The notes beneath the pieces are model-generated. The model did not search any database and was not told where the DNA came from. It worked only from the letters and a program-made list of their open reading frames with translations. Below, one piece after another: positions 2,262 to 59,714 of a stretch of 64,000 nucleotides of DNA; the first letter of the stretch is position 1; the number at the start of each line of letters is the position of its first letter. The translations under genes were made by a program, and so were the position numbers. Source of the DNA: an uncultured Syntrophaceae bacterium (GTDB taxonomy: Bacteria > Desulfobacterota > Syntrophia > Syntrophales > UBA2210); assembly GCA_964394725.1 (NCBI GenBank), contig CAYMYS010000002.1, positions 4,497 through 68,496 on the forward strand. The letters run 5' to 3'.

Positions 2262-2761
2262 CGGGGCACCTCGTTTCCGTTATTGATCAATTTAATCAAA
2301 TCGACGAGGAGGACCAGTGAGATGACGCCGCAGCCCAGGGCGACTCCATAGACAAAGGGAAAATAGACGATCCTCAGGGTTTCCGAGAGTTCATTGACCC
2401 TCCAGAGGTTGTTCCCATATTTTACCGCCTGCCACCCGGCCAGGGAAAAAAAGATCATACCGACGAGGTAGTTAATCCCGCTGAGAACTAACCGCACCCC
2501 GCGGGGAAATTTCAAAATAAGAACATCGACGGCGATGTGCTCTTTCTTCATCTGCGTGCGCCCCAGCGCGAAGGCCGCCACGATAGCACCAAAAAATCCC
2601 ATCAGTTCGAATGTGCCCTTTACGGGAACCCAGACAGTGCGGAAAAAGACATTGGCGCATGCCAGTACCATCATGGCCACCAGCAGGAATCCCGCTATGG
2701 CAATCAATCCGCGGTTGACTACGATGACCGCTCTGTCCAGGTGCTCTATAACCTTTTCCAT
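2258..2761 (-). CDS. TRAP transporter small permease subunit (DctQ family)
   Basis: A 167-aa protein with four predicted TM helices, placed between the DctP-like and DctM-like genes. Its stop overlaps the dctM-like start (2258-2261). Confidence 0.85.
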   Translation of the reverse strand: MEKVIEHLDRAVIVVNRGLIAIAGFLLVAMMVLACANVFFRTVWVPVKGTFELMGFFGAIVAAFALGRTQMKKEHIAVDVLILKFPRGVRLVLSGINYLVGMIFFSLAGWQAVKYGNNLWRVNELSETLRIVYFPFVYGVALGCGVISLVLLVDLIKLINNGNEVPR

Positions 2762-2823
2762 TGTGTTGATATCGCTTTCTTTACTTTCTGCAGCTTCTTA
2801 AAGAAGCACATCTCAATCGTCTT

Positions 2824-2893
2824 GTCATTCCCTGCTTGATCGGGAATCCATTTCTTTCAAGTACTTATGGACTCCCACCTTCGTGGGAGTGAC
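2824..2893. repeat. REPIN-like doublet: two inverted copies of a GTCATTCCC-loop-GGGAATCC type palindromic unit
   Basis: Unit 1 is GTCATTCCC (2824-2832) / GGGAATCCA (2842-2850). Unit 2 is in inverse orientation: GGACTCCCAC (2869-2878) / GTGGGAGTGAC (2883-2893). Each unit is a hairpin, and the two units can also pair with each other with one mismatch per arm. The doublet sits in the dctP-dctQ intercistronic gap. Confidence 0.6.
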
Positions 2894-2904
2894 AGTGAGA
2901 TTCT

Positions 2905-2932
2905 AAATCCGGCTTTGTAAAAAGCCAGATTT
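2905..2932 (-). terminator. Intercistronic hairpin / partial terminator downstream of the TRAP binding-protein gene
   Basis: AAATCCGGCTTT-gtaa-AAAGCCAGATTT. The single mismatch becomes a G-U pair only on the minus-strand transcript, which matches the gene orientation. The flanks are T/A-rich. It lies 35 nt after the dctP-like stop. Confidence 0.45.
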
Positions 2933-2966
2933 TCGATGCTCTTTTTCTATGTCTTATTTCAAAACC

Positions 2967-3995
2967 CTACTTGTACTGAGCTGAATATTTAGCCATAAGG
3001 TCCTGGATGTCTCTTATGACCTCTTTGCCGGGAACCTTCGGTTCAACCCTCTTGATATAATTATTAACGAGGGGGCTGAGCAGTTCATGCATCTTCTTCT
3101 GCTCGTCGGCGGCAAAGTTGATGACTTCCACCTTATATTTTTTCTTGGACCAGGCCACCGCCTCATTGACATGATCATCCACGTACTTGCCCGTCCACTC
3201 TGTCTGCTCCCTGATAAGTCCGTCCATAACATCCTGCACGTCCTTGGGCAGAGAATTCCAGGTATCGAGATTCATGATGACGCCGAAGGTGACAACCTGC
3301 AGGTTGGTCATGGTGATATAGCGGCAGTATTCGGCATAGTTGAAGTCCTTCATGACTTCCAGTGACGAGGCCATCCCCTTTATCACCTTTTTATGGAGGG
3401 CATCGGGGACATCGGACTGGGGCATGCCGATGGGGCTTGCTCCCAGCAGTTCGAATACCTTGACGCCCGTTCCGGCGGCCCGAATTTCGAGACCCCTCAG
3501 ATCGGCAAGGGTGCGTACCGGGTCTATCGACATGATATTGGCGGGCGGGCAGGTAAACATGGTGAGAACCTTGACCTTTTTGAAGGATTCGGGCTTGTAT
3601 TTATTGTAGAGATCGAGTTGCGCCAGGCTGGCCACCGTTGCATTTGGCCATCCGTGGGGAAGATCGATCGCCTCCAGAACAGGGAAACGGCCCGGGTGAT
3701 AGGACAGGGCAAAGCAGCCTATGTCGGCCTGTCCGGCAACGACGCCGTCAAACATGTTTTTCGCACCAAGAAGCGTGCTCCCCGGGAAGGTCTTGATCTC
3801 CACCTTGCCGGCTGTTCGTTTCTCTACCTCCGTTTTCCACCGTTCCATCTGGACGGCTGGGAAGGTTGGCGCAGGCGGAAAATTCGCATAGGTCAGCGAC
3901 TTCGCCTTGGCAGATGCCATGGGCGCAGAGAGTGTGGCCACCATCAGAAAGGCCACCATCAGTACCAGTAACTTACAAATAAATGCTCTTTTCAT
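2967..3995 (-). CDS. TRAP transporter solute-binding protein (DctP family)
   Basis: A 342-aa protein with an N-terminal signal peptide (MKRAFICKLLVLMVAFLMVATLSAPMASA) and a DctP-like body. It is adjacent to the DctQ/DctM genes. Confidence 0.9.
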   Translation of the reverse strand: MKRAFICKLLVLMVAFLMVATLSAPMASAKAKSLTYANFPPAPTFPAVQMERWKTEVEKRTAGKVEIKTFPGSTLLGAKNMFDGVVAGQADIGCFALSYHPGRFPVLEAIDLPHGWPNATVASLAQLDLYNKYKPESFKKVKVLTMFTCPPANIMSIDPVRTLADLRGLEIRAAGTGVKVFELLGASPIGMPQSDVPDALHKKVIKGMASSLEVMKDFNYAEYCRYITMTNLQVVTFGVIMNLDTWNSLPKDVQDVMDGLIREQTEWTGKYVDDHVNEAVAWSKKKYKVEVINFAADEQKKMHELLSPLVNNYIKRVEPKVPGKEVIRDIQDLMAKYSAQYK

Positions 3996-7956: not shown

Positions 7957-8784
7957 CTACTCAGACACAGTCCCATTCCTCATCCAATAGAGACTCATAC
8001 CTAAAAGTATCATGGCCAGACAGAGTATCTGACCCATTGACATGGCCGCCAGCACAAATCCCAGTTGGGGGTCGGGGTCTCTGAAGAATTCTATGATAAA
8101 CCGTACCAGACCATAGCCGATGAGATAGAAGGAAAGGAGAAACCCATCAAAGCGTCCTCTTTTTCTGATAGACCACAGGATGATGAACAGAAAGATACCT
8201 TCAAAGAGGGCCTCATACAGCTGAGAGGGGTGACGAAGTCGGCCCGTAGGATCGAGGGGAAAGTACATGCCCCAGGGCATGGTGGTGACACGCCCGAAGA
8301 GTTCGCCATTCAGGAAATTTCCTATTCTGCCGAAGGTGTATCCCAGAGGGAGGGCCGCGGCAAAAAGATCGGCGAAATGCCAGAATCCTATGCCCCGCTT
8401 ACGACAGAATAACAGCGCGGCAATAACCACTCCGACAGCGCCGCCGTGATAGGACATGCCGCTGATACCGACATACCGGAAACCGTCTTGCAGATCGAAG
8501 GGAAAGATTATCATCAGGGGGTTGGAGATATAATAGTCGAAGTTGTAAAAGAGAATATATCCCAGCCGAGCGCCTATCAGAAGACCGACAATAAGCCACA
8601 CGAAGACATCCTGAATCGTCTCTTTCGTGTAGGGATGACCCTCATCCTTTATCCGGTAGAGAATGAGACGATAGGTAATGAAGAAGGCCACCAGATACAT
8701 GAGGCCATAATAACGAATCTGAAAGGATCCTATAGTGAGGAGTGCGGGGTCGATATGGTACGGTATGTGGTTCCAGAAATTCAT
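7957..8784 (-). CDS. lgt: Prolipoprotein diacylglyceryl transferase
   Basis: A 275-aa membrane protein with Lgt signatures (YHGGAVG, FGRIGNFLNGELFGR, HPSQLYE). Confidence 0.9.
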   Translation of the reverse strand: MNFWNHIPYHIDPALLTIGSFQIRYYGLMYLVAFFITYRLILYRIKDEGHPYTKETIQDVFVWLIVGLLIGARLGYILFYNFDYYISNPLMIIFPFDLQDGFRYVGISGMSYHGGAVGVVIAALLFCRKRGIGFWHFADLFAAALPLGYTFGRIGNFLNGELFGRVTTMPWGMYFPLDPTGRLRHPSQLYEALFEGIFLFIILWSIRKRGRFDGFLLSFYLIGYGLVRFIIEFFRDPDPQLGFVLAAMSMGQILCLAMILLGMSLYWMRNGTVSE

Positions 8785-9140
8785 TATTCAGTTTCTTCTC
8801 AAGAAAGGGTCACTCTTTTTTATTGAAGGCGTTCAAGCACAAATTTCTTTCAGCGGTCATTAAGATGGATTTTGAAAATAAATCTTGGTGAATCGGAAGA
8901 AGAGCAATTCCAATTATTTGAACCCGAAGGGCGAGTTTTGGAATCGCCTGAAGCAAGCCTCAGATTTATCAAAAAGCATCTTGGTACGTTAGTAGTTATT
9001 TTCTGCTTTTTACAGAAAATAACTACGTTAATGCATTTATGCCCTTTAGTGGTACTTACCCCGTTTATCGGGGTTAGACAAGCTACGAGAAATGCGTACA
9101 ACTAACCCCTTCAATACGAAAGTGGTTACAGCGCATGAAA

Positions 9141-9168
9141 AGCGGATTTTCTTATGAGAAAATCCGCT
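9141..9168 (-). terminator. Intrinsic terminator after the trxB / zinc-ribbon transcription unit
   Basis: A perfect 12-bp stem, AGCGGATTTTCT-tatg-AGAAAATCCGCT, about 40 nt downstream of the 9210 stop. It is followed by TTTC on the minus strand. Confidence 0.6.
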
Positions 9169-9209
9169 AAAGCACTGCTCGGCCGACAGACTGCCGGCGG
9201 TTAGAAGCC

Positions 9210-9404
9210 TCAGGTGCTGCCTGACGATGGCGCGCAGGTGGAACAAGATCCACCACATCCGGGTTTCGCAAGGGTAGACATGAGCTTTTCCGCTCCCTTC
9301 TCGCCACAGACGGGACATTCAACGTCACTGTCGCCACTGCTTGAAAAACTGATTACTTCAAATTCATGCTTACACTTCCTGCATGCATATTCATAGATTG
9401 GCAC
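9210..9404 (-). CDS. FmdB-family zinc-ribbon protein
   Basis: MPIYEYACRKCKHEFEV...CPVCG has two CxxC pairs. The Cys/Gly/Ser-rich tail is usual for this family. Confidence 0.8.
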   Translation of the reverse strand: MPIYEYACRKCKHEFEVISFSSSGDSDVECPVCGEKGAEKLMSTLAKPGCGGSCSTCAPSSGST

Positions 9405-9437
9405 TATCTTCTCTCCTTCACAATTCCTGGTAATTTT

Positions 9438-56965: not shown

Positions 56966-57184
56966 TAAGGATCAGCGTAGAATTACTTTTATGTCAAGAA
57001 CCTAAACTAATACCTCGCCCTCTTGCAGGGGGAGGCAGGAGTGGGTAATGGGAGGGGAGTCTGGAAACATCCCACCTGCCCTGTAAGGAACCGTCACTCC
57101 CGCAACTGTACCGAAGAGATGCCCATCGTCCCGGCAGGCTTTTCAAGCGTTGCCGCCTGCCCAATCAGAATATTTAATCATTTC

Positions 57185-57220
57185 TTGATTTCACACAAAT
57201 TAATGTGTAAAATTGTGTGA
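57185..57220 (+). promoter_or_regulatory. vapBC promoter with overlapping inverted-repeat operator
   Basis: -35 TTGATT (57185-57190), a 17-nt spacer, and -10 TAAAAT (57208-57213). A perfect inverted repeat, TCACACAA (57191-57198) / TTGTGTGA (57213-57220), spans the spacer and -10. GGGAGG RBS precedes the ATG at 57243. Confidence 0.6.
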
Positions 57221-57242: not shown

Positions 57243-57443
57243 ATGGCAACAAATTTACAGATAGATGACAATCTCATCTTGAAAGCCGTGAAACTCGGCA
57301 GGCATAAAACAAAAAAGGCCGCTGTCTCACAGGCACTGATTGATTATATACATCACTTGGAGCAGGAAAAAATTCTCACGATGTTTGGAACTGTGGAATA
57401 CGACTCGGAATATGATTATAAAAAGCAGAGAAATCGGCCGTGA
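57243..57443 (+). CDS. vapB: Type II antitoxin VapB (DUF2191-like)
   Basis: MATNLQIDDNLILKAVKLGRHKTKKAAVSQAL is the typical ribbon/helix N-terminus. Its stop overlaps the PIN gene start (GTGA). Confidence 0.8.
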   Translation: MATNLQIDDNLILKAVKLGRHKTKKAAVSQALIDYIHHLEQEKILTMFGTVEYDSEYDYKKQRNRP

Positions 57444-57844
57444 ATATCATCGTTGACACAAGCGTATGGTCTCTGGCCTTAAGGCGCGATAAAGAAAACT
57501 CGACTGCACCGGTCCAGGAGCTTCGTCATCTAATCCATGATCATCGTGTTCGGATGATGGGTCCCGTTCGTCAGGAGATTTTATCGGGTATTCGCAGCGG
57601 AGATCAGTTTAATAAACTTCGTGAGCATCTCGAACATTTCCCCGATCTTCAGATACGCACCGAAGACTATGTTACAGCAGCCCGTTATTTCAATCAGTGC
57701 CGTTCAAAAGGAATACAAGGTTCAAATACCGATTTCTTGATATGCGCCGTGGCCGTCAGCAACAAGTTCTCAATCTATACCATGGATAAGGACTTCGAGA
57801 TGTTTTCGAAACATATACCGATTGTTCTCCACAGGGTCGATTAA
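57440..57844 (+). CDS. vapC: Type II toxin VapC (PIN-domain ribonuclease)
   Basis: A 134-aa protein with IVDTSVW (first acidic residue), internal E/D residues and TMDKDF. The start is GTG, coupled to vapB. Confidence 0.85.
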   Translation: MNIIVDTSVWSLALRRDKENSTAPVQELRHLIHDHRVRMMGPVRQEILSGIRSGDQFNKLREHLEHFPDLQIRTEDYVTAARYFNQCRSKGIQGSNTDFLICAVAVSNKFSIYTMDKDFEMFSKHIPIVLHRVD

Positions 57845-57849
57845 TTTCG

Positions 57850-58250
57850 CCGCTGGTTCAATCTTGTAGATTGAACCACAACATTACAGTGATTAGTTGT
57901 AGCACCTTCACACGTTCAAGTTACTTTATAGATTAAAACACATAAGAGACATTTGGGGGAAATGCCATGATTGGCAAAACCCCCAAATAGCGACAAAGCG
58001 GAAACACCCAGCGTGCCGGAGACAAAAGCATTAATCATTTGGCCAAAAAGGCAACAGTGCCAAATCGGCCAAAAGGCAATGTATTATTGAGCATTAAAGA
58101 ATTAATTGACTTTATTTACAGGCATTTGGCCGAAATGCCAGCATTGGCATAATGGCCAAATAGCAATTATTGTCGGACGTTATCCGGTCTGCAGACTGAA
58201 ACCAAAGCCATTTACCGGAAAAGCCAGTAGTGGCATTTTCGGTAAATAGT
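57850..58250 (+). repeat. Modular hairpin-array element, copy 1: leader hairpin plus four 86-87-bp units (candidate structured RNA or BOX/MITE-like repeat)
   Basis: Leader hairpin: GGTTCAATCT-tgt-AGATTGAACC (57855-57877).
Units start at 57952, 58038, 58125 and 58211, each of the form CATTT-outer stem-A-rich loop-(T)GCCA-4 nt-TGGC(A)-A/T loop-outer stem-AAATAG.
Outer stems differ but stay complementary: GGGGG/CCCCC, GGCC/GGCC, GGCC/GGCC, ACCG/CGGT. Confidence 0.8.
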
Positions 58251-58393
58251 ATTGAACTGGACAACGAGTGCATTCCCCGCTGCCTGTCTGCCGTTGAAAA
58301 GATAGGCTCTGTAGAAATATTCGTCGACGTGCAGAGGGTCTGAGCGGGTGCTACACTCGGAGACCCTTAATATTTCACAATACAGAACACAGA

Positions 58394-58422
58394 TTGACGA
58401 TGCATAACATTTTTCTTATCAT
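58394..58422 (+). promoter_or_regulatory. Sigma-70-type promoter of the orphan antitoxin gene
   Basis: TTGACG (58394-58399), a 17-nt spacer, and TATCAT (58417-58422). It is flanked by the direct repeat ATGCATAA (58400-58407 and 58423-58430). GAGGAGG RBS lies before the ATG at 58447. Confidence 0.5.
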
Positions 58423-58446
58423 ATGCATAATTGAGGAGGTATTCAT

Positions 58447-58641
58447 ATGAGAACAACATTAGACATACCTGATGATCTCTTTAAGGAGGCCATGAAAATC
58501 ACGCGGTGCCGTACAAAAATAGAGGTGATCAAAATCGTTTTGGAAAATATTGTTAAGAAAAATAACATACAAATGTTAAAGCAGTTCAGGGGTAAAATTG
58601 ATCTTGATATTAATCTGTCTGCATCGAGGAAAAGGGATTGA
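58447..58641 (+). CDS. Orphan VapB-type (DUF2191-like) antitoxin; no cognate PIN gene follows
   Basis: MRTTLDIPDDLFKEAMKITRCRTKIEVIKIVLENI is paralogous in pattern to the vapB at 57243. Downstream there is only an ATG-TAA stub. Confidence 0.7.
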   Translation: MRTTLDIPDDLFKEAMKITRCRTKIEVIKIVLENIVKKNNIQMLKQFRGKIDLDINLSASRKRD

Positions 58642-58740
58642 GATCAGATGTAATGTTCCGTAGTGTTTTTTAGTCCCGAATCAATAATTGTGTTAAAATA
58701 AACCCAATAATTAAAATTTCGAGTATGCGGAGAACAGGAA

Positions 58741-58965
58741 ATGAAACAATTGAAGATAGTTGTCGAAAAATATCCGGATACATATGTTGCTTATCCGATT
58801 GGGATGAAAGGCATTGTCGTGGGGCAAGGCGATACATATGAGGCTGTATTGTCCGATGTTAAATCTGCGATACAATTTCATATCGATACTTTTGGCCCCG
58901 ATCAAATAGAAATAGATCCTCCAATCCTGGAAGCATTTATTGCAGAAACAGGAATCGCTGTGTAA
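58741..58965 (+). CDS. hicB: HicB-like antitoxin (UPF0150 fold, no DNA-binding domain)
   Basis: IVVEKYPDTYVAYPIGMKGIVVGQGDTYEAVLSDVKSAIQFHI fits the short HicB_lk/UPF0150 pattern. Confidence 0.65.
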   Translation: MKQLKIVVEKYPDTYVAYPIGMKGIVVGQGDTYEAVLSDVKSAIQFHIDTFGPDQIEIDPPILEAFIAETGIAV

Positions 58966-59078
58966 TGCATAAATTCCTTGCAGATGCTCCCATTAGAAAA
59001 GTAATAAAAGCCAAACTTCCCTTACCCAGACTCAAATTTCTAGAGACGATTTTCTCGAAGCATATTATTCATAATAAT
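58965..59078 (+). pseudogene. hicA: hicA toxin remnant with internal deletion
   Basis: The ATG overlaps the hicB stop (TAATG). The first about 16 codons (MHKFLADAPIRKVIKA) look like a HicA N-terminus. A different frame ends in ...TQISRDDFLEAYYS*, which looks like a HicA C-terminus. The catalytic core is missing. Confidence 0.4.
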
Positions 59079-59106
59079 GGCTGCCGGTTCAATCTTACTT
59101 GCCCCA

Positions 59107-59446
59107 CCGCTGGTTCAATCTTGTAGATTGAACCACAACATTACAGTGATTAATTACAGCACCCTCACACCTTCAAGTTACTTGAAAGATAAAGACACAT
59201 AAGAGACATTAGGGGGAAATGCCAGAATTGGTAAAATCCCCCAATAGCGGTTTTTCAAAACATCAGGCTTACCGGCGAAAAAAGCTTTCATCATTTAACC
59301 AAAATGACAACAGTGCCAGATCTGCCCAAAGGCATTGAATTATTGATCATTATAGAATGCTACTGACTGGATTTATAAGCATTTGACGAAAAAGGCAACA
59401 TTGCCATATTCGTCAAATAGCCATTATTGTCGGATTTTACCCGTTC
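59107..59446 (+). repeat. Modular hairpin-array element, copy 2 (three units; the middle unit is degenerate)
   Basis: Aligns with 57850-58190 along its length, with scattered substitutions. It has the same leader hairpin (59112-59134). Unit A2 is at 59209-59245 and unit C2 at 59382-59417 (TTTGACGA-aaaa-GGCA-acat-TGCC-atat-TCGTCAAA). Confidence 0.8.
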
Positions 59447-59613
59447 TACATATGTCCGATGTTCATCTCCTGGAGCTGGTGGGGAATCACACTGTGGTCG
59501 AACCGGATGCTTTCCTCGATAAGGTTGCCCGCCGGCGTTCCTGTTCCATACTGTCCTCTCGCTGAGATGTCCCCTTTCCCCTGGTGAAAGATAGGGCTGC
59601 ATCCGAAGACAGA

Positions 59614-59651
59614 GAATCCGGAAGCCCGCCGTTTCGGGGGCATCCGGATTC
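59614..59651 (-). terminator. Candidate terminator of the Ldh2-family gene
   Basis: GAATCCGGA...TCCGGATTC is a 9-bp outer stem, plus an inner GCCC/GGGC helix. It lies 63 nt downstream of the 59715 stop and is followed by TCTGTCTTC on the minus strand. Confidence 0.4.
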
Positions 59652-59714
59652 CCTCATTCATGATCTTTCCTGTAGCAGGTTTGGCGCGCTATTTCCTGTT
59701 TCTGAGGGTCAAGT

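Follow-up and report, generated by a model that had tools for sequence, protein, structure and literature searches.

The window analysed here, a stretch of 64,000 nucleotides from contig CAYMYS010000002.1 of an uncultured Syntrophaceae bacterium, carries at ~57.2-59.5 kb a small toxin-antitoxin island that is flanked by a DUF2231 gene and an Ldh_2 gene. For a marker protein of the organism, an uncultured Desulfobacterota, the closest named relatives come from Syntrophales and Desulfobacterales MAGs, with ~55% identity. Behind the vapC gene of its first cassette lies an array of four bipartite hairpin units, A to D, preceded by a shorter hairpin (57855-57877) that starts 10 nt after the vapC stop codon (57842-57844). 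A first-pass annotation made from the sequence alone had proposed that this array is either an unannotated structured RNA or a modular repeat; its unit coordinates, the 86-87-bp period (the unit starts are 86, 87 and 86 bp apart), the two-part folds, and the leading hairpin with a 10-bp stem and a 3-nt loop all check. Units A-D each form a two-part hairpin and none of 200 shuffles is equally stable. The pattern TTTR-N8-GSCA-N4-TGSC-N8-YAAA is found at 6 sites in 64 kb as compared to 0.00 expected from shuffles, 5 of the 6 being exact and all 5 of these falling within two elements, the array and a second copy of it. A unit covariance model likewise recovers 7 units in the 64-kb window, all on the + strand and all inside the two elements; unit D is nearly symmetric and is scored by the model on both strands. 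The four bipartite hairpin units are not a product of chance, and Tandem Repeats Finder did not report the array in the window because its units are too dissimilar. Of the CATTT...AAATAG borders that had been described as conserved, unit B departs in ending with AAAAGG rather than AAATAG, and the supposedly shared start of the spacers, AGCAATTATTG, is present behind unit C only, unit B having GGCAATGTATTATTG.

The second copy, missed by the first-pass annotation, lies 1.25 kb downstream of the first and behind the second small cassette of the island. It repeats at 59107-59450 the hairpin, the 75-nt leader and units A-C of 57850-58193, and thus consists of three modules. The hairpin GGTTCAATCT-tgt-AGATTGAACC is an exact repeat within the window, where 0 are expected by chance, and leader and hairpin together are ~91% identical between the two copies. 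Unit A' has changed TTT to TTA, contains one G-T pair and has suffered one deletion, and unit B' is decayed further. In the intact unit C' (59382-59417) both stems have changed relative to unit C (58125-58160), each on its two arms together: GGCCG/TGGCC has become GACGA/TCGTC, and TGCCA/TGGCA has become GGCA/TGCC. By its sequence this difference looks like module replacement and not point mutation; the flanks of the two units are still 75-80% identical. A partial additional 5' arm of the leading hairpin, CCGGTTCAATCTTAC, is seen at 59085-59098, 27 nt upstream of the second hairpin. Other assemblies of the organism consist only of short contigs that are broken at repeats; two of these from independent short-read assemblies, L246 and L243, end at window positions 57186, the left edge of the island, and 59123, inside the hairpin of copy 2. 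The latter end is expected because the hairpin sequence is multi-copy, and both breaks are consistent with repeats or strain variation at the island.

The unit belongs to a very large family. A search pattern in which the borders and the inner stem were fixed and the outer stem was left free located units at no fewer than 119 JGI metagenome loci; no unit in IMG/VR was matched by the same pattern. The modular repeat alternative of the first-pass annotation was right. In an alignment of 119 units (A2) 92.6% of the stem cells pair, and 90 of the 119 units are intergenic. Three pairs left unconstrained by the search each occur with four to five pair types, e.g. GC 60, CG 33, UA 14, AU 4 and UG 2. 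The observed covariation score is reached by 0 of 500 shuffles, and sliding of the partner arm lowers pairing to 30-48%. The stem covariation first noticed among four units is thus genuine, and over 100 additional copies show it very strongly.

In the window the four units and their spacers form what we call a type-1 composite. This is found elsewhere by blastn at locus L173 (2661-3000, 81.9% identity) and locus L158 (11757-12060, 78.4%), and an alignment of the copies (A3) shows that the spacers are conserved along with the units; the leader at 57878-57946 was not found in either of these two loci when the composites were aligned. Only 4 copies of the type-1 composite were available, and their ends show neither terminal inverted repeats nor target-site duplications. 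Unit D is inverted in L158 (12002-12057) relative to the window (58206-58261), with otherwise collinear flanks, and in L173 it has symmetric CTATTT...AAATAG borders; these sequences suggest that single palindromic units can flip. More generally, intergenic modules are multiplied with tandem periods of 84-88 and ~122 bp as well as in inverted arrangements, and form discrete composites of 3-4 modules in toxin-antitoxin islands. In other loci a single cluster can have units on either strand, at recurring spacings, of 84-88, ~122 and ~162 bp between units on the same strand and of 71-73, 88-94 and 160-165 bp between units on opposite strands.

Strong covariation alone would mislabel such an element as a structured RNA, and it is the balance of wobble pairs against mismatches, together with unit orientation, that tells the two apart. 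If an RNA strand were functional, G-U pairs should be tolerated in its stems and A-C avoided. To count these, 166 distinct intergenic units were gathered with a hidden Markov model (HMM), so that pairing was not forced by the search pattern; their 12 stem pairs comprise 1822 Watson-Crick, 38 G-T, 36 A-C and 63 other combinations. G-T thus occupies ~2% of the stem cells, equal to A-C, and overall there is no strand asymmetry. The G58218-T58239 pair of unit D, from which a plus-strand product had been argued, does pair as G-T and carries no strand information given this equality. Near-pure Watson-Crick pairing, equal G-T and A-C counts, and the occurrence of units in both orientations point to a DNA palindrome and not to an RNA. 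It is therefore very improbable that the + strand is transcribed, perhaps as the 3' untranslated region of vapBC, into hairpins that bind or sequester a protein as do CsrB or ToxI. Such an RNA would fit the location of all 7 window units on the strand of the flanking genes, the stability of the single-strand hairpins, the covariation itself, and a slight excess of G-T (25) over A-C (12) at the four variable outer pairs. It does not fit the mixed orientation of clusters elsewhere, including the inverted unit D of L158, the conservation of whole composites alike, spacers included, or the presence of the same hairpin with 99% Watson-Crick pairing in a coding region (below). Nor does any promoter/terminator pair frame a discrete transcript. 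The first-pass annotation knew of no RNA family that the element matches, and Rfam gave 0 matches in the window at gathering threshold, only chance-level matches in 57700-59700 at E up to 10, and no match on the units of nine related loci. Thus the structured RNA interpretation of the first-pass annotation is unsupported, and the finding fails as an RNA candidate.

Several other assignments were rejected. There are no intrinsic terminators at the units, whose flanks, TTT before and AAA after the stem, are the wrong way round. A CRISPR array is dismissed because the units differ in both stems and the spacers are conserved between composite copies, and a type III toxin-antitoxin RNA of the ToxI kind because its identical repeats are lacking here and the adjacent genes are of type II (VapB, PIN). 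A plasmid or phage origin found no DNA or protein match in PLSDB, and IMG/VR contains neither a unit nor a relative of the gene, described below, that carries one.

On this evidence the interval is, with a probability of about 0.8, one ~340-bp non-coding dispersed DNA repeat, made up of four ~41-bp palindromic modules and their spacers, standing behind a repetitive extragenic palindromic (REP) hairpin, followed downstream by a decaying three-module copy, and belonging to a very large family. The features of the island are collected in the table.

Table. Features of the toxin-antitoxin island and its two repeat copies (window positions)
Feature	Position	Strand	Basis or remark
vapB antitoxin gene, in cassette 1 of the island	57243..57443	+	Pfam VapB_antitoxin E = 1.3e-14
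vapC, PIN-domain toxin gene	57440..57844	+	Pfam PIN E = 1.1e-9; ORF list
REP-type hairpin copy 1, GGTTCAATCT-tgt-AGATTGAACC	57855..57877	.	exact repeat in window
Leader segment	57878..57946	+	common only to both window copies; alignment A1
Type-1 composite, units A-B-C-D and spacers	57938..58277	+	blastn, alignment A3; conserved as a whole
Unit A hairpin	57952..57987	+	covariance model 60.7 bits; fold z = -5.3
Unit B hairpin	58038..58073	+	covariance model 56.9 bits; fold z = -3.5
Unit C hairpin	58125..58160	+	covariance model 64.2 bits; fold z = -4.6
Unit D hairpin	58211..58246	.	covariance model 56.3 bits on +, 45.3 on -; fold z = -7.0
VapB-like antitoxin gene, second cassette	58447..58641	+	Pfam VapB_antitoxin E = 2.2e-10
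74-aa ORF	58741..58965	+	weak DUF5678 match, 18.9 bits, below cut-off
Second repeat copy: REP hairpin, leader, units A', B', C'	59107..59450	+	80.6% identity to 57850-58193
REP-type hairpin copy 2	59112..59134	.	exact repeat of copy 1 hairpin
Unit A', partly decayed	59209..59244	+	covariance-model match 59204-59259, 42.2 bits
Unit B', strongly decayed	59294..59329	+	covariance-model match 59289-59344, 17.6 bits, E = 0.1
Unit C', intact	59382..59417	+	covariance model 62.1 bits

The leading hairpin has a history of its own. A search of a species-representative genome set with the 20-nt stem and any loop found more than 118 loci, in Chloroflexota, Brocadiaceae, Desulfobacterota, Nitrospirota, Nitrospinota and the candidate phyla radiation, often with several copies per genome as in Anaerolineales HSG25. 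In a Nitrospirota contig (L074) four copies in inverted orientation flank an open reading frame (ORF) at 1329-1856, those with TGC, GTA and TGT loops upstream and one with a GCA loop downstream. This ORF scores 84 bits against NF047646, the REP-associated tyrosine transposase (RAYT), where the NCBI equivalog cut-off is 80; it also has a weak Pfam Y1_Tnp match and only a faint match to PDB 4ER8. Judged from these sequence matches the leading hairpin is classed as a REP linked to the REP-associated transposase, and the 64-kb window itself contains no RAYT. The stem GGTTCAATCT-N3-AGATTGAACC is base-for-base identical across at least six phyla (loci L001-L118; L074 781-2482), which is unusual for a REP. 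Extensions of the stem are often lineage-specific, such as AGATT...AATCT in Chloroflexota, and in Brocadiaceae the hairpin sits, together with a second hairpin, within a larger inverted repeat GCTAAAC...GTTTAGG. Locus L051 has three copies ~540-640 bp apart, between single genes. A common origin of this hairpin and the units was rejected, as there are 0 units in the 118 hairpin loci and composites are present in L173 and L158 without the hairpin; the two are separate families. The units nonetheless share the features of REPs and of bacterial interspersed mosaic elements (BIMEs), being extragenic imperfect palindromes of ~35-40 nt in high copy with direct and inverted clusters. The first-pass annotation had named membership of a REP, BOX or miniature inverted-repeat transposable element (MITE) family, spread by transposition, as what would tell against its proposal, and this largely describes what was found, namely a REP-linked leading hairpin and dispersed, sharp-ended composites. 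A tblastn search with the L074 RAYT gave no match in the unit-bearing loci, although these are short, so that a RAYT present once per genome could readily escape notice, and no transposase, integrase or recombinase family recurs beside the units in these short loci.

The unit is also found within protein coding sequence. At more than 30 metagenome loci it lies in an ORF of ~475 aa, at residues ~185-200, where it encodes ...HL-x-KM-xx-L-xxxx-NSDLSRGFTV.... The first 140 residues of the protein resemble Noc, ParB, Spo0J and KorB (PDB 7NG0 and others; NCBIfam parB_part). Among Pfam models N6_N4_Mtase is above cut-off, ParB_N and HTH_23 are just below, and motifs resembling methyltransferase motifs I (DPMAGGG) and IV (DPPY) can be read from the sequences; PADLOC matched the protein only to generic type II methyltransferase models. 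There are at least 991 homologues of this ParB-methyltransferase, named as Desulfobacterales or Thermodesulfobacteriota. In 113 of 120 homologues the amino acid that follows "HL" changes together with the two that precede "N[SAGT]D": A is found with PL, PP, QL or QP, G with LL, SL or FL, L with SI or LI, P with PV or SA, and S with ST. These combinations are exactly those expected from complementary arms of the outer stem. The stems of the gene copies are 99% Watson-Crick (355/360) as compared to 93% in the intergenic copies. Such pairing and the coupled amino acids argue that a nucleic-acid hairpin is under strong selection within the coding sequence. A -1 frameshift signal in the gene was rejected, since the conserved TAG of the -1 frame is not accompanied by a slippery heptamer in register. 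Example gene loci are L123, L129, L187, L218, L224 and L239 (in the last the gene is at 8001-9425 and the unit at 8550-8605), in which a ~41-nt hairpin couples residue ~187 with residues ~195-196. A small ORF of ~100 aa often precedes the gene, e.g. L189 767-1111 on the - strand, and is downstream of it in L131; it carries the motif ...LEWEVSEDxYxEQIxIPKE...LAITGxxQxYLPxEIQKML... and, at the thresholds applied, is matched by nothing in Pfam, NCBIfam or PADLOC.

Intergenic modules and the gene appear to be related by descent. Together with roughly 25-60 bp of either flank, the module matches gene codons ~165-212, and intergenic units keep such gene-like flanks as tblastn matches to residues 165-212; translated, window unit B reads SINHLAKKATVPNRPKGNVLLS as compared to ISNHLPKMATLPNPVNSDLSR in the gene. 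The earlier assertion that no ORF in the interval is coding therefore stands for the short ORFs, which are not genes, although the sequence itself has a coding segment among its relatives. As part of a gene the unit occurs in a single family, always at the same position, where it overlaps the end of the helix-turn-helix (HTH) motif, and there are truncated copies of the gene that stop at it (L173, L169). Descent from gene to fragments is favored though not proven; it is suggested by the upstream flank, in which the final helix of the HTH motif is encoded.

In other loci modules have become the content of integron cassettes. A type-2 composite, which has three units and is about 315-380 bp long, is found with sharp ends and 75-90% identity at 20 or more loci, twice each in L174, L206, L226 and L156. 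In an alignment of 14 copies it is bounded on one side by ...TAAC-[imperfect inverted repeat]-GTTAAAAGC and on the other by GGCTTTTAAC, followed by divergent sequence. The attC sites that bound it, with R'' xxxTAAC and R' GTTAAAA, are 58-129 nt long with bulged stems and fold convincingly in at least 12 loci; L206 shows composite, attC and composite in a row, the type-2 cassette being duplicated in tandem (2704-3456). The type-2 composite is thus the content of ORF-less integron cassettes. The cassette arrays are of a Desulfobacterales type with cores xxxTAAC and GTTAAAAGC (L206 2704-3456, L125 9173-9236, L174 3890-3951, L226 13517-13888). Adjoining the array in L206 are group II intron domains at 1077-1520 on the - strand (RF02001 137 bits, RF01998 39.5 bits), which may belong to an intron of the group IIC-attC type. 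In L226 unit clusters alternate with toxin-antitoxin cassettes in a layout like that of the window, these cassettes being an HTH_3/MqsA-like antitoxin next to an unassigned 88-aa ORF, PIN_3 with RHH, and DUF4258 next to an unassigned 69-aa ORF; BrnT, HigB and HicB-like genes neighbour unit clusters in other loci. The 74-aa ORF of the window resembles HicB/UPF0150-type antitoxins by eye only, and the ORF that follows the composite in L158 weakly matches HicB_lk/UPF0150.

The window composite does not itself appear to be such a cassette. By the criteria used for attC (RYYYAAC and GTTRRRY cores, 57-141 nt, bulged stems and extrahelical bases) a crude scan, which does recover attC in control loci, found no attC-like site in 56.7-59.8 kb, and an ORF-less integron cassette at this place was rejected for want of bounding sites. 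The folds of candidates at 57867-57925, 58245-58312 and 57095-57160 are no more stable than those of shuffled sequences. The REP hairpin was dismissed as attC since the GTT at its stem base has the inverse polarity and AAC...GTT cores are lacking, and the units since they have CATTT/AAATAG borders, symmetric stems, a length of 36-41 nt and neither cores nor extrahelical bases. No integrase is evident in the island, the large ORFs of the window not having been screened for one, and no attC is seen downstream of full-length ParB-methyltransferase genes.

These results bear on a proposal in which the units are recombination sites, hairpins like attC or the ends of REP/IS200 elements on which a recombinase or HUH enzyme moves small cassettes, so that the arrays would be accumulated attachment sites or the footprints of insertion at the ParB-methyltransferase hairpin. 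An attC site is laid out as R-box, spacer, L-box and a short terminal structure, and the unit, with its outer stem, symmetric internal loop, inner stem and 4-nt loop, resembles it; the free sequence and conserved structure are also as in attC, toxin-antitoxin cassettes alternate with unit clusters in L226 and the window, and some gene copies are broken at a unit. The proposal is nevertheless improbable. The unit lacks the AAC/GTT core and extrahelical bases and is too short, the genuine attC sites of the same arrays differ from it in sequence, no recombinase, integrase or transposase recurs beside it, and clusters hold 2-4 units of varying orientation and not one site per cassette boundary. 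Moreover the arms of each unit match each other, so that crossovers within the stems must be rare.

Nor is the array at all likely to be a promoter or operator module for promoter-less cassettes downstream. ORF-less integron cassettes with promoter activity are reported (PMC6557892), the cassette that follows has a composite upstream of it, and weak sigma-70-like matches are found in unit C (TTGGCA-18-TATTGT, 58144-58173) and unit C' (TTGCCA-18-TATTGT, 59401-59430). However, these matches score just 9/12, unit orientation varies, the stem covariation would be left unexplained, and the best site for the next gene, at 58394-58422 (TTGACG-17-TATCAT), is outside the composite. Just upstream of that site, before the VapB-like gene, lies the imperfect hairpin (58310-58378) that had been taken for a possible 3' end of the element; its fold has modest stability (z = -2.2 for the + strand and -2.6 for the - strand), and it may instead be part of the operator/promoter region of the second cassette.

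How the dispersed palindromic modules might act is less certain than what they are. Since either strand folds, modules would be able to extrude as hairpins or cruciforms, as do REP/BIME units. The invariant CATTT, AAAAT-GSCA, TGSC-AAAAT and AAATAG segments could then be read by a structure-specific protein, and the variable outer stem would need only to pair. That the modules act as DNA hairpins read by a protein is a tentative proposal with somewhat less than even odds, and the account as a whole, identity and mechanism together, has about an even chance of being right. Foremost among candidate readers, and the most economical one, is the ParB/Noc/KorB-like methyltransferase, whose own gene contains one such site. 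Analogous cases are parS, which lies inside spo0J, and sopC of plasmid F, which consists of 12 repeats of 43 bp, each with a palindrome. Arrays would then serve as multi-site platforms or decoys. A more specific version is doubtful: the module would be the recognition or loading site of a previously uncharacterised fusion of a ParB-CTPase-like protein and a DNA methyltransferase that reads extruded hairpins rather than duplex palindromes, the gene would keep its own site at the cost of coupled residues, and arrays would mark or organize variable regions by epigenetic marking, silencing, partition-like clustering or structure-specific recombination. The window copies themselves are probably relaxed passengers of the island with no essential local function, as indicated by the 93% vs 99% pairing, the decay of A' and B', and units that are no better conserved than spacers.

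A number of observations weigh against a protein reader and against selection on the modules where they now lie. The link to a ParB-like protein is drawn solely from the sequence homology of module and gene, and to our knowledge ParB-family proteins bind duplex palindromes and not hairpins. The 64-kb window has no ParB-methyltransferase gene; in Desulfobacula the gene is solitary and chromosomal with one internal unit and none nearby, and an additional upstream unit accompanies only 2-3 of ~13 full-length genes. Between the window copies units are 75-86% identical as compared to 62-80% for spacers, and by its covariance-model scores copy 2 is decaying. Covariation among intergenic units could have been inherited from different source genes and not selected in place. 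The G-T excess at the four variable outer pairs also leaves room for a weak one-strand preference.

Some of the same observations would be expected of neutral debris, that is, if only the genic hairpin is functional and fragments of the ParB-methyltransferase gene have been multiplied and inverted by palindrome-provoked slippage, template switching and illegitimate recombination, and carried along in regions of fast turnover such as toxin-antitoxin islands and integron cassettes. The gene-like flanks of intergenic units, their looser pairing (93% vs 99%), the decaying A' and B', the similar rates at which spacers and units diverge between the window copies, and the broken gene copies that end at a unit in L173 and L169 all agree with debris. 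Yet composites are discrete and sharp-ended in 20 or more contexts at 75-90% identity, intergenic units far outnumber genic ones (90/119 in A2), pairing stays at 93% although stem variants are numerous, an entire integron cassette is made up of one composite and has even been duplicated, and the two stems of C' have each changed in a coordinated way relative to C. Debris is on balance a rather unlikely explanation of the family as a whole.

The array is of moderate interest as an entry point to the unit family. This family links a hairpin-constrained ParB/Noc/KorB-like methyltransferase gene, REP/BIME-like clusters in toxin-antitoxin islands, and ORF-less integron cassettes. If the ParB-like protein does read the hairpins, the ParB family would gain a new way of recognizing its sites, and one class of non-coding integron cassettes would acquire a function. 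Otherwise the family clearly exemplifies how a palindromic piece of a gene can spread as selfish DNA.

Among known systems the REP/BIME elements and RAYTs of E. coli and Pseudomonas are close in form: they likewise are short imperfect palindromes of ~35-40 nt, extragenic and in high copy, that form tandem or alternating clusters with short linkers, often just after stop codons, and fold as DNA hairpins, and the leading hairpin of the window belongs to a RAYT-linked REP family. The 41-bp units differ in that no RAYT was found beside them, they lack a GTAG-type tetranucleotide, and their stems are free and covarying, as compared to one conserved REP sequence per genome; we know of no precedent for a REP that matches a coding segment of a ParB-methyltransferase-like gene. 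The attC sites and ORF-less cassettes share with the units a conserved structure of free sequence, two stems around an internal loop, and residence in toxin-antitoxin-rich cassette arrays, the sister type-2 composite being cassette content. Units are shorter, however, and without RYYYAAC/GTTRRRY cores or extrahelical bases, so that they are cargo and not the recombination site, and the window island has no attC detected by the crude scan. Tandem hairpins beside toxin-antitoxin genes recall CsrB/RsmZ and ToxI, but the units have no GGA loops, are not identical and have no ToxN partner, and their pairing statistics and mixed orientation argue against an RNA. Rickettsia palindromic elements (RPEs) and genic MITEs are likewise palindromic repeats found both between genes and in frame within them, dispersed with sharp ends as are the composites; the unit differs in occupying one gene family at the same position, with no terminal inverted repeats or duplications seen. 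ParB, Noc and KorB-like proteins likewise may have a palindromic site in their own gene and further sites arrayed or dispersed, and the outer arms of the unit, ATTTRNN...NNYAAAT, bear an apparent resemblance to the half-sites of the Noc NBS ATTTCCCGGGAAAT and KorB OB TTTAGCSGCTAAA. Known ParB sites are, unlike the unit, contiguous duplex palindromes of fixed sequence; the unit arms are 20 bp apart, free and covarying, which implies pairing within a strand. REP/BIME-like palindromic repeats and ORF-less cassettes are already known as kinds, and no description of the unit family was found in Rfam or the literature searched. The family appears to be an undescribed variant, in which a free, covarying stem matches a ParB-methyltransferase coding segment and forces covariation of its amino acids.

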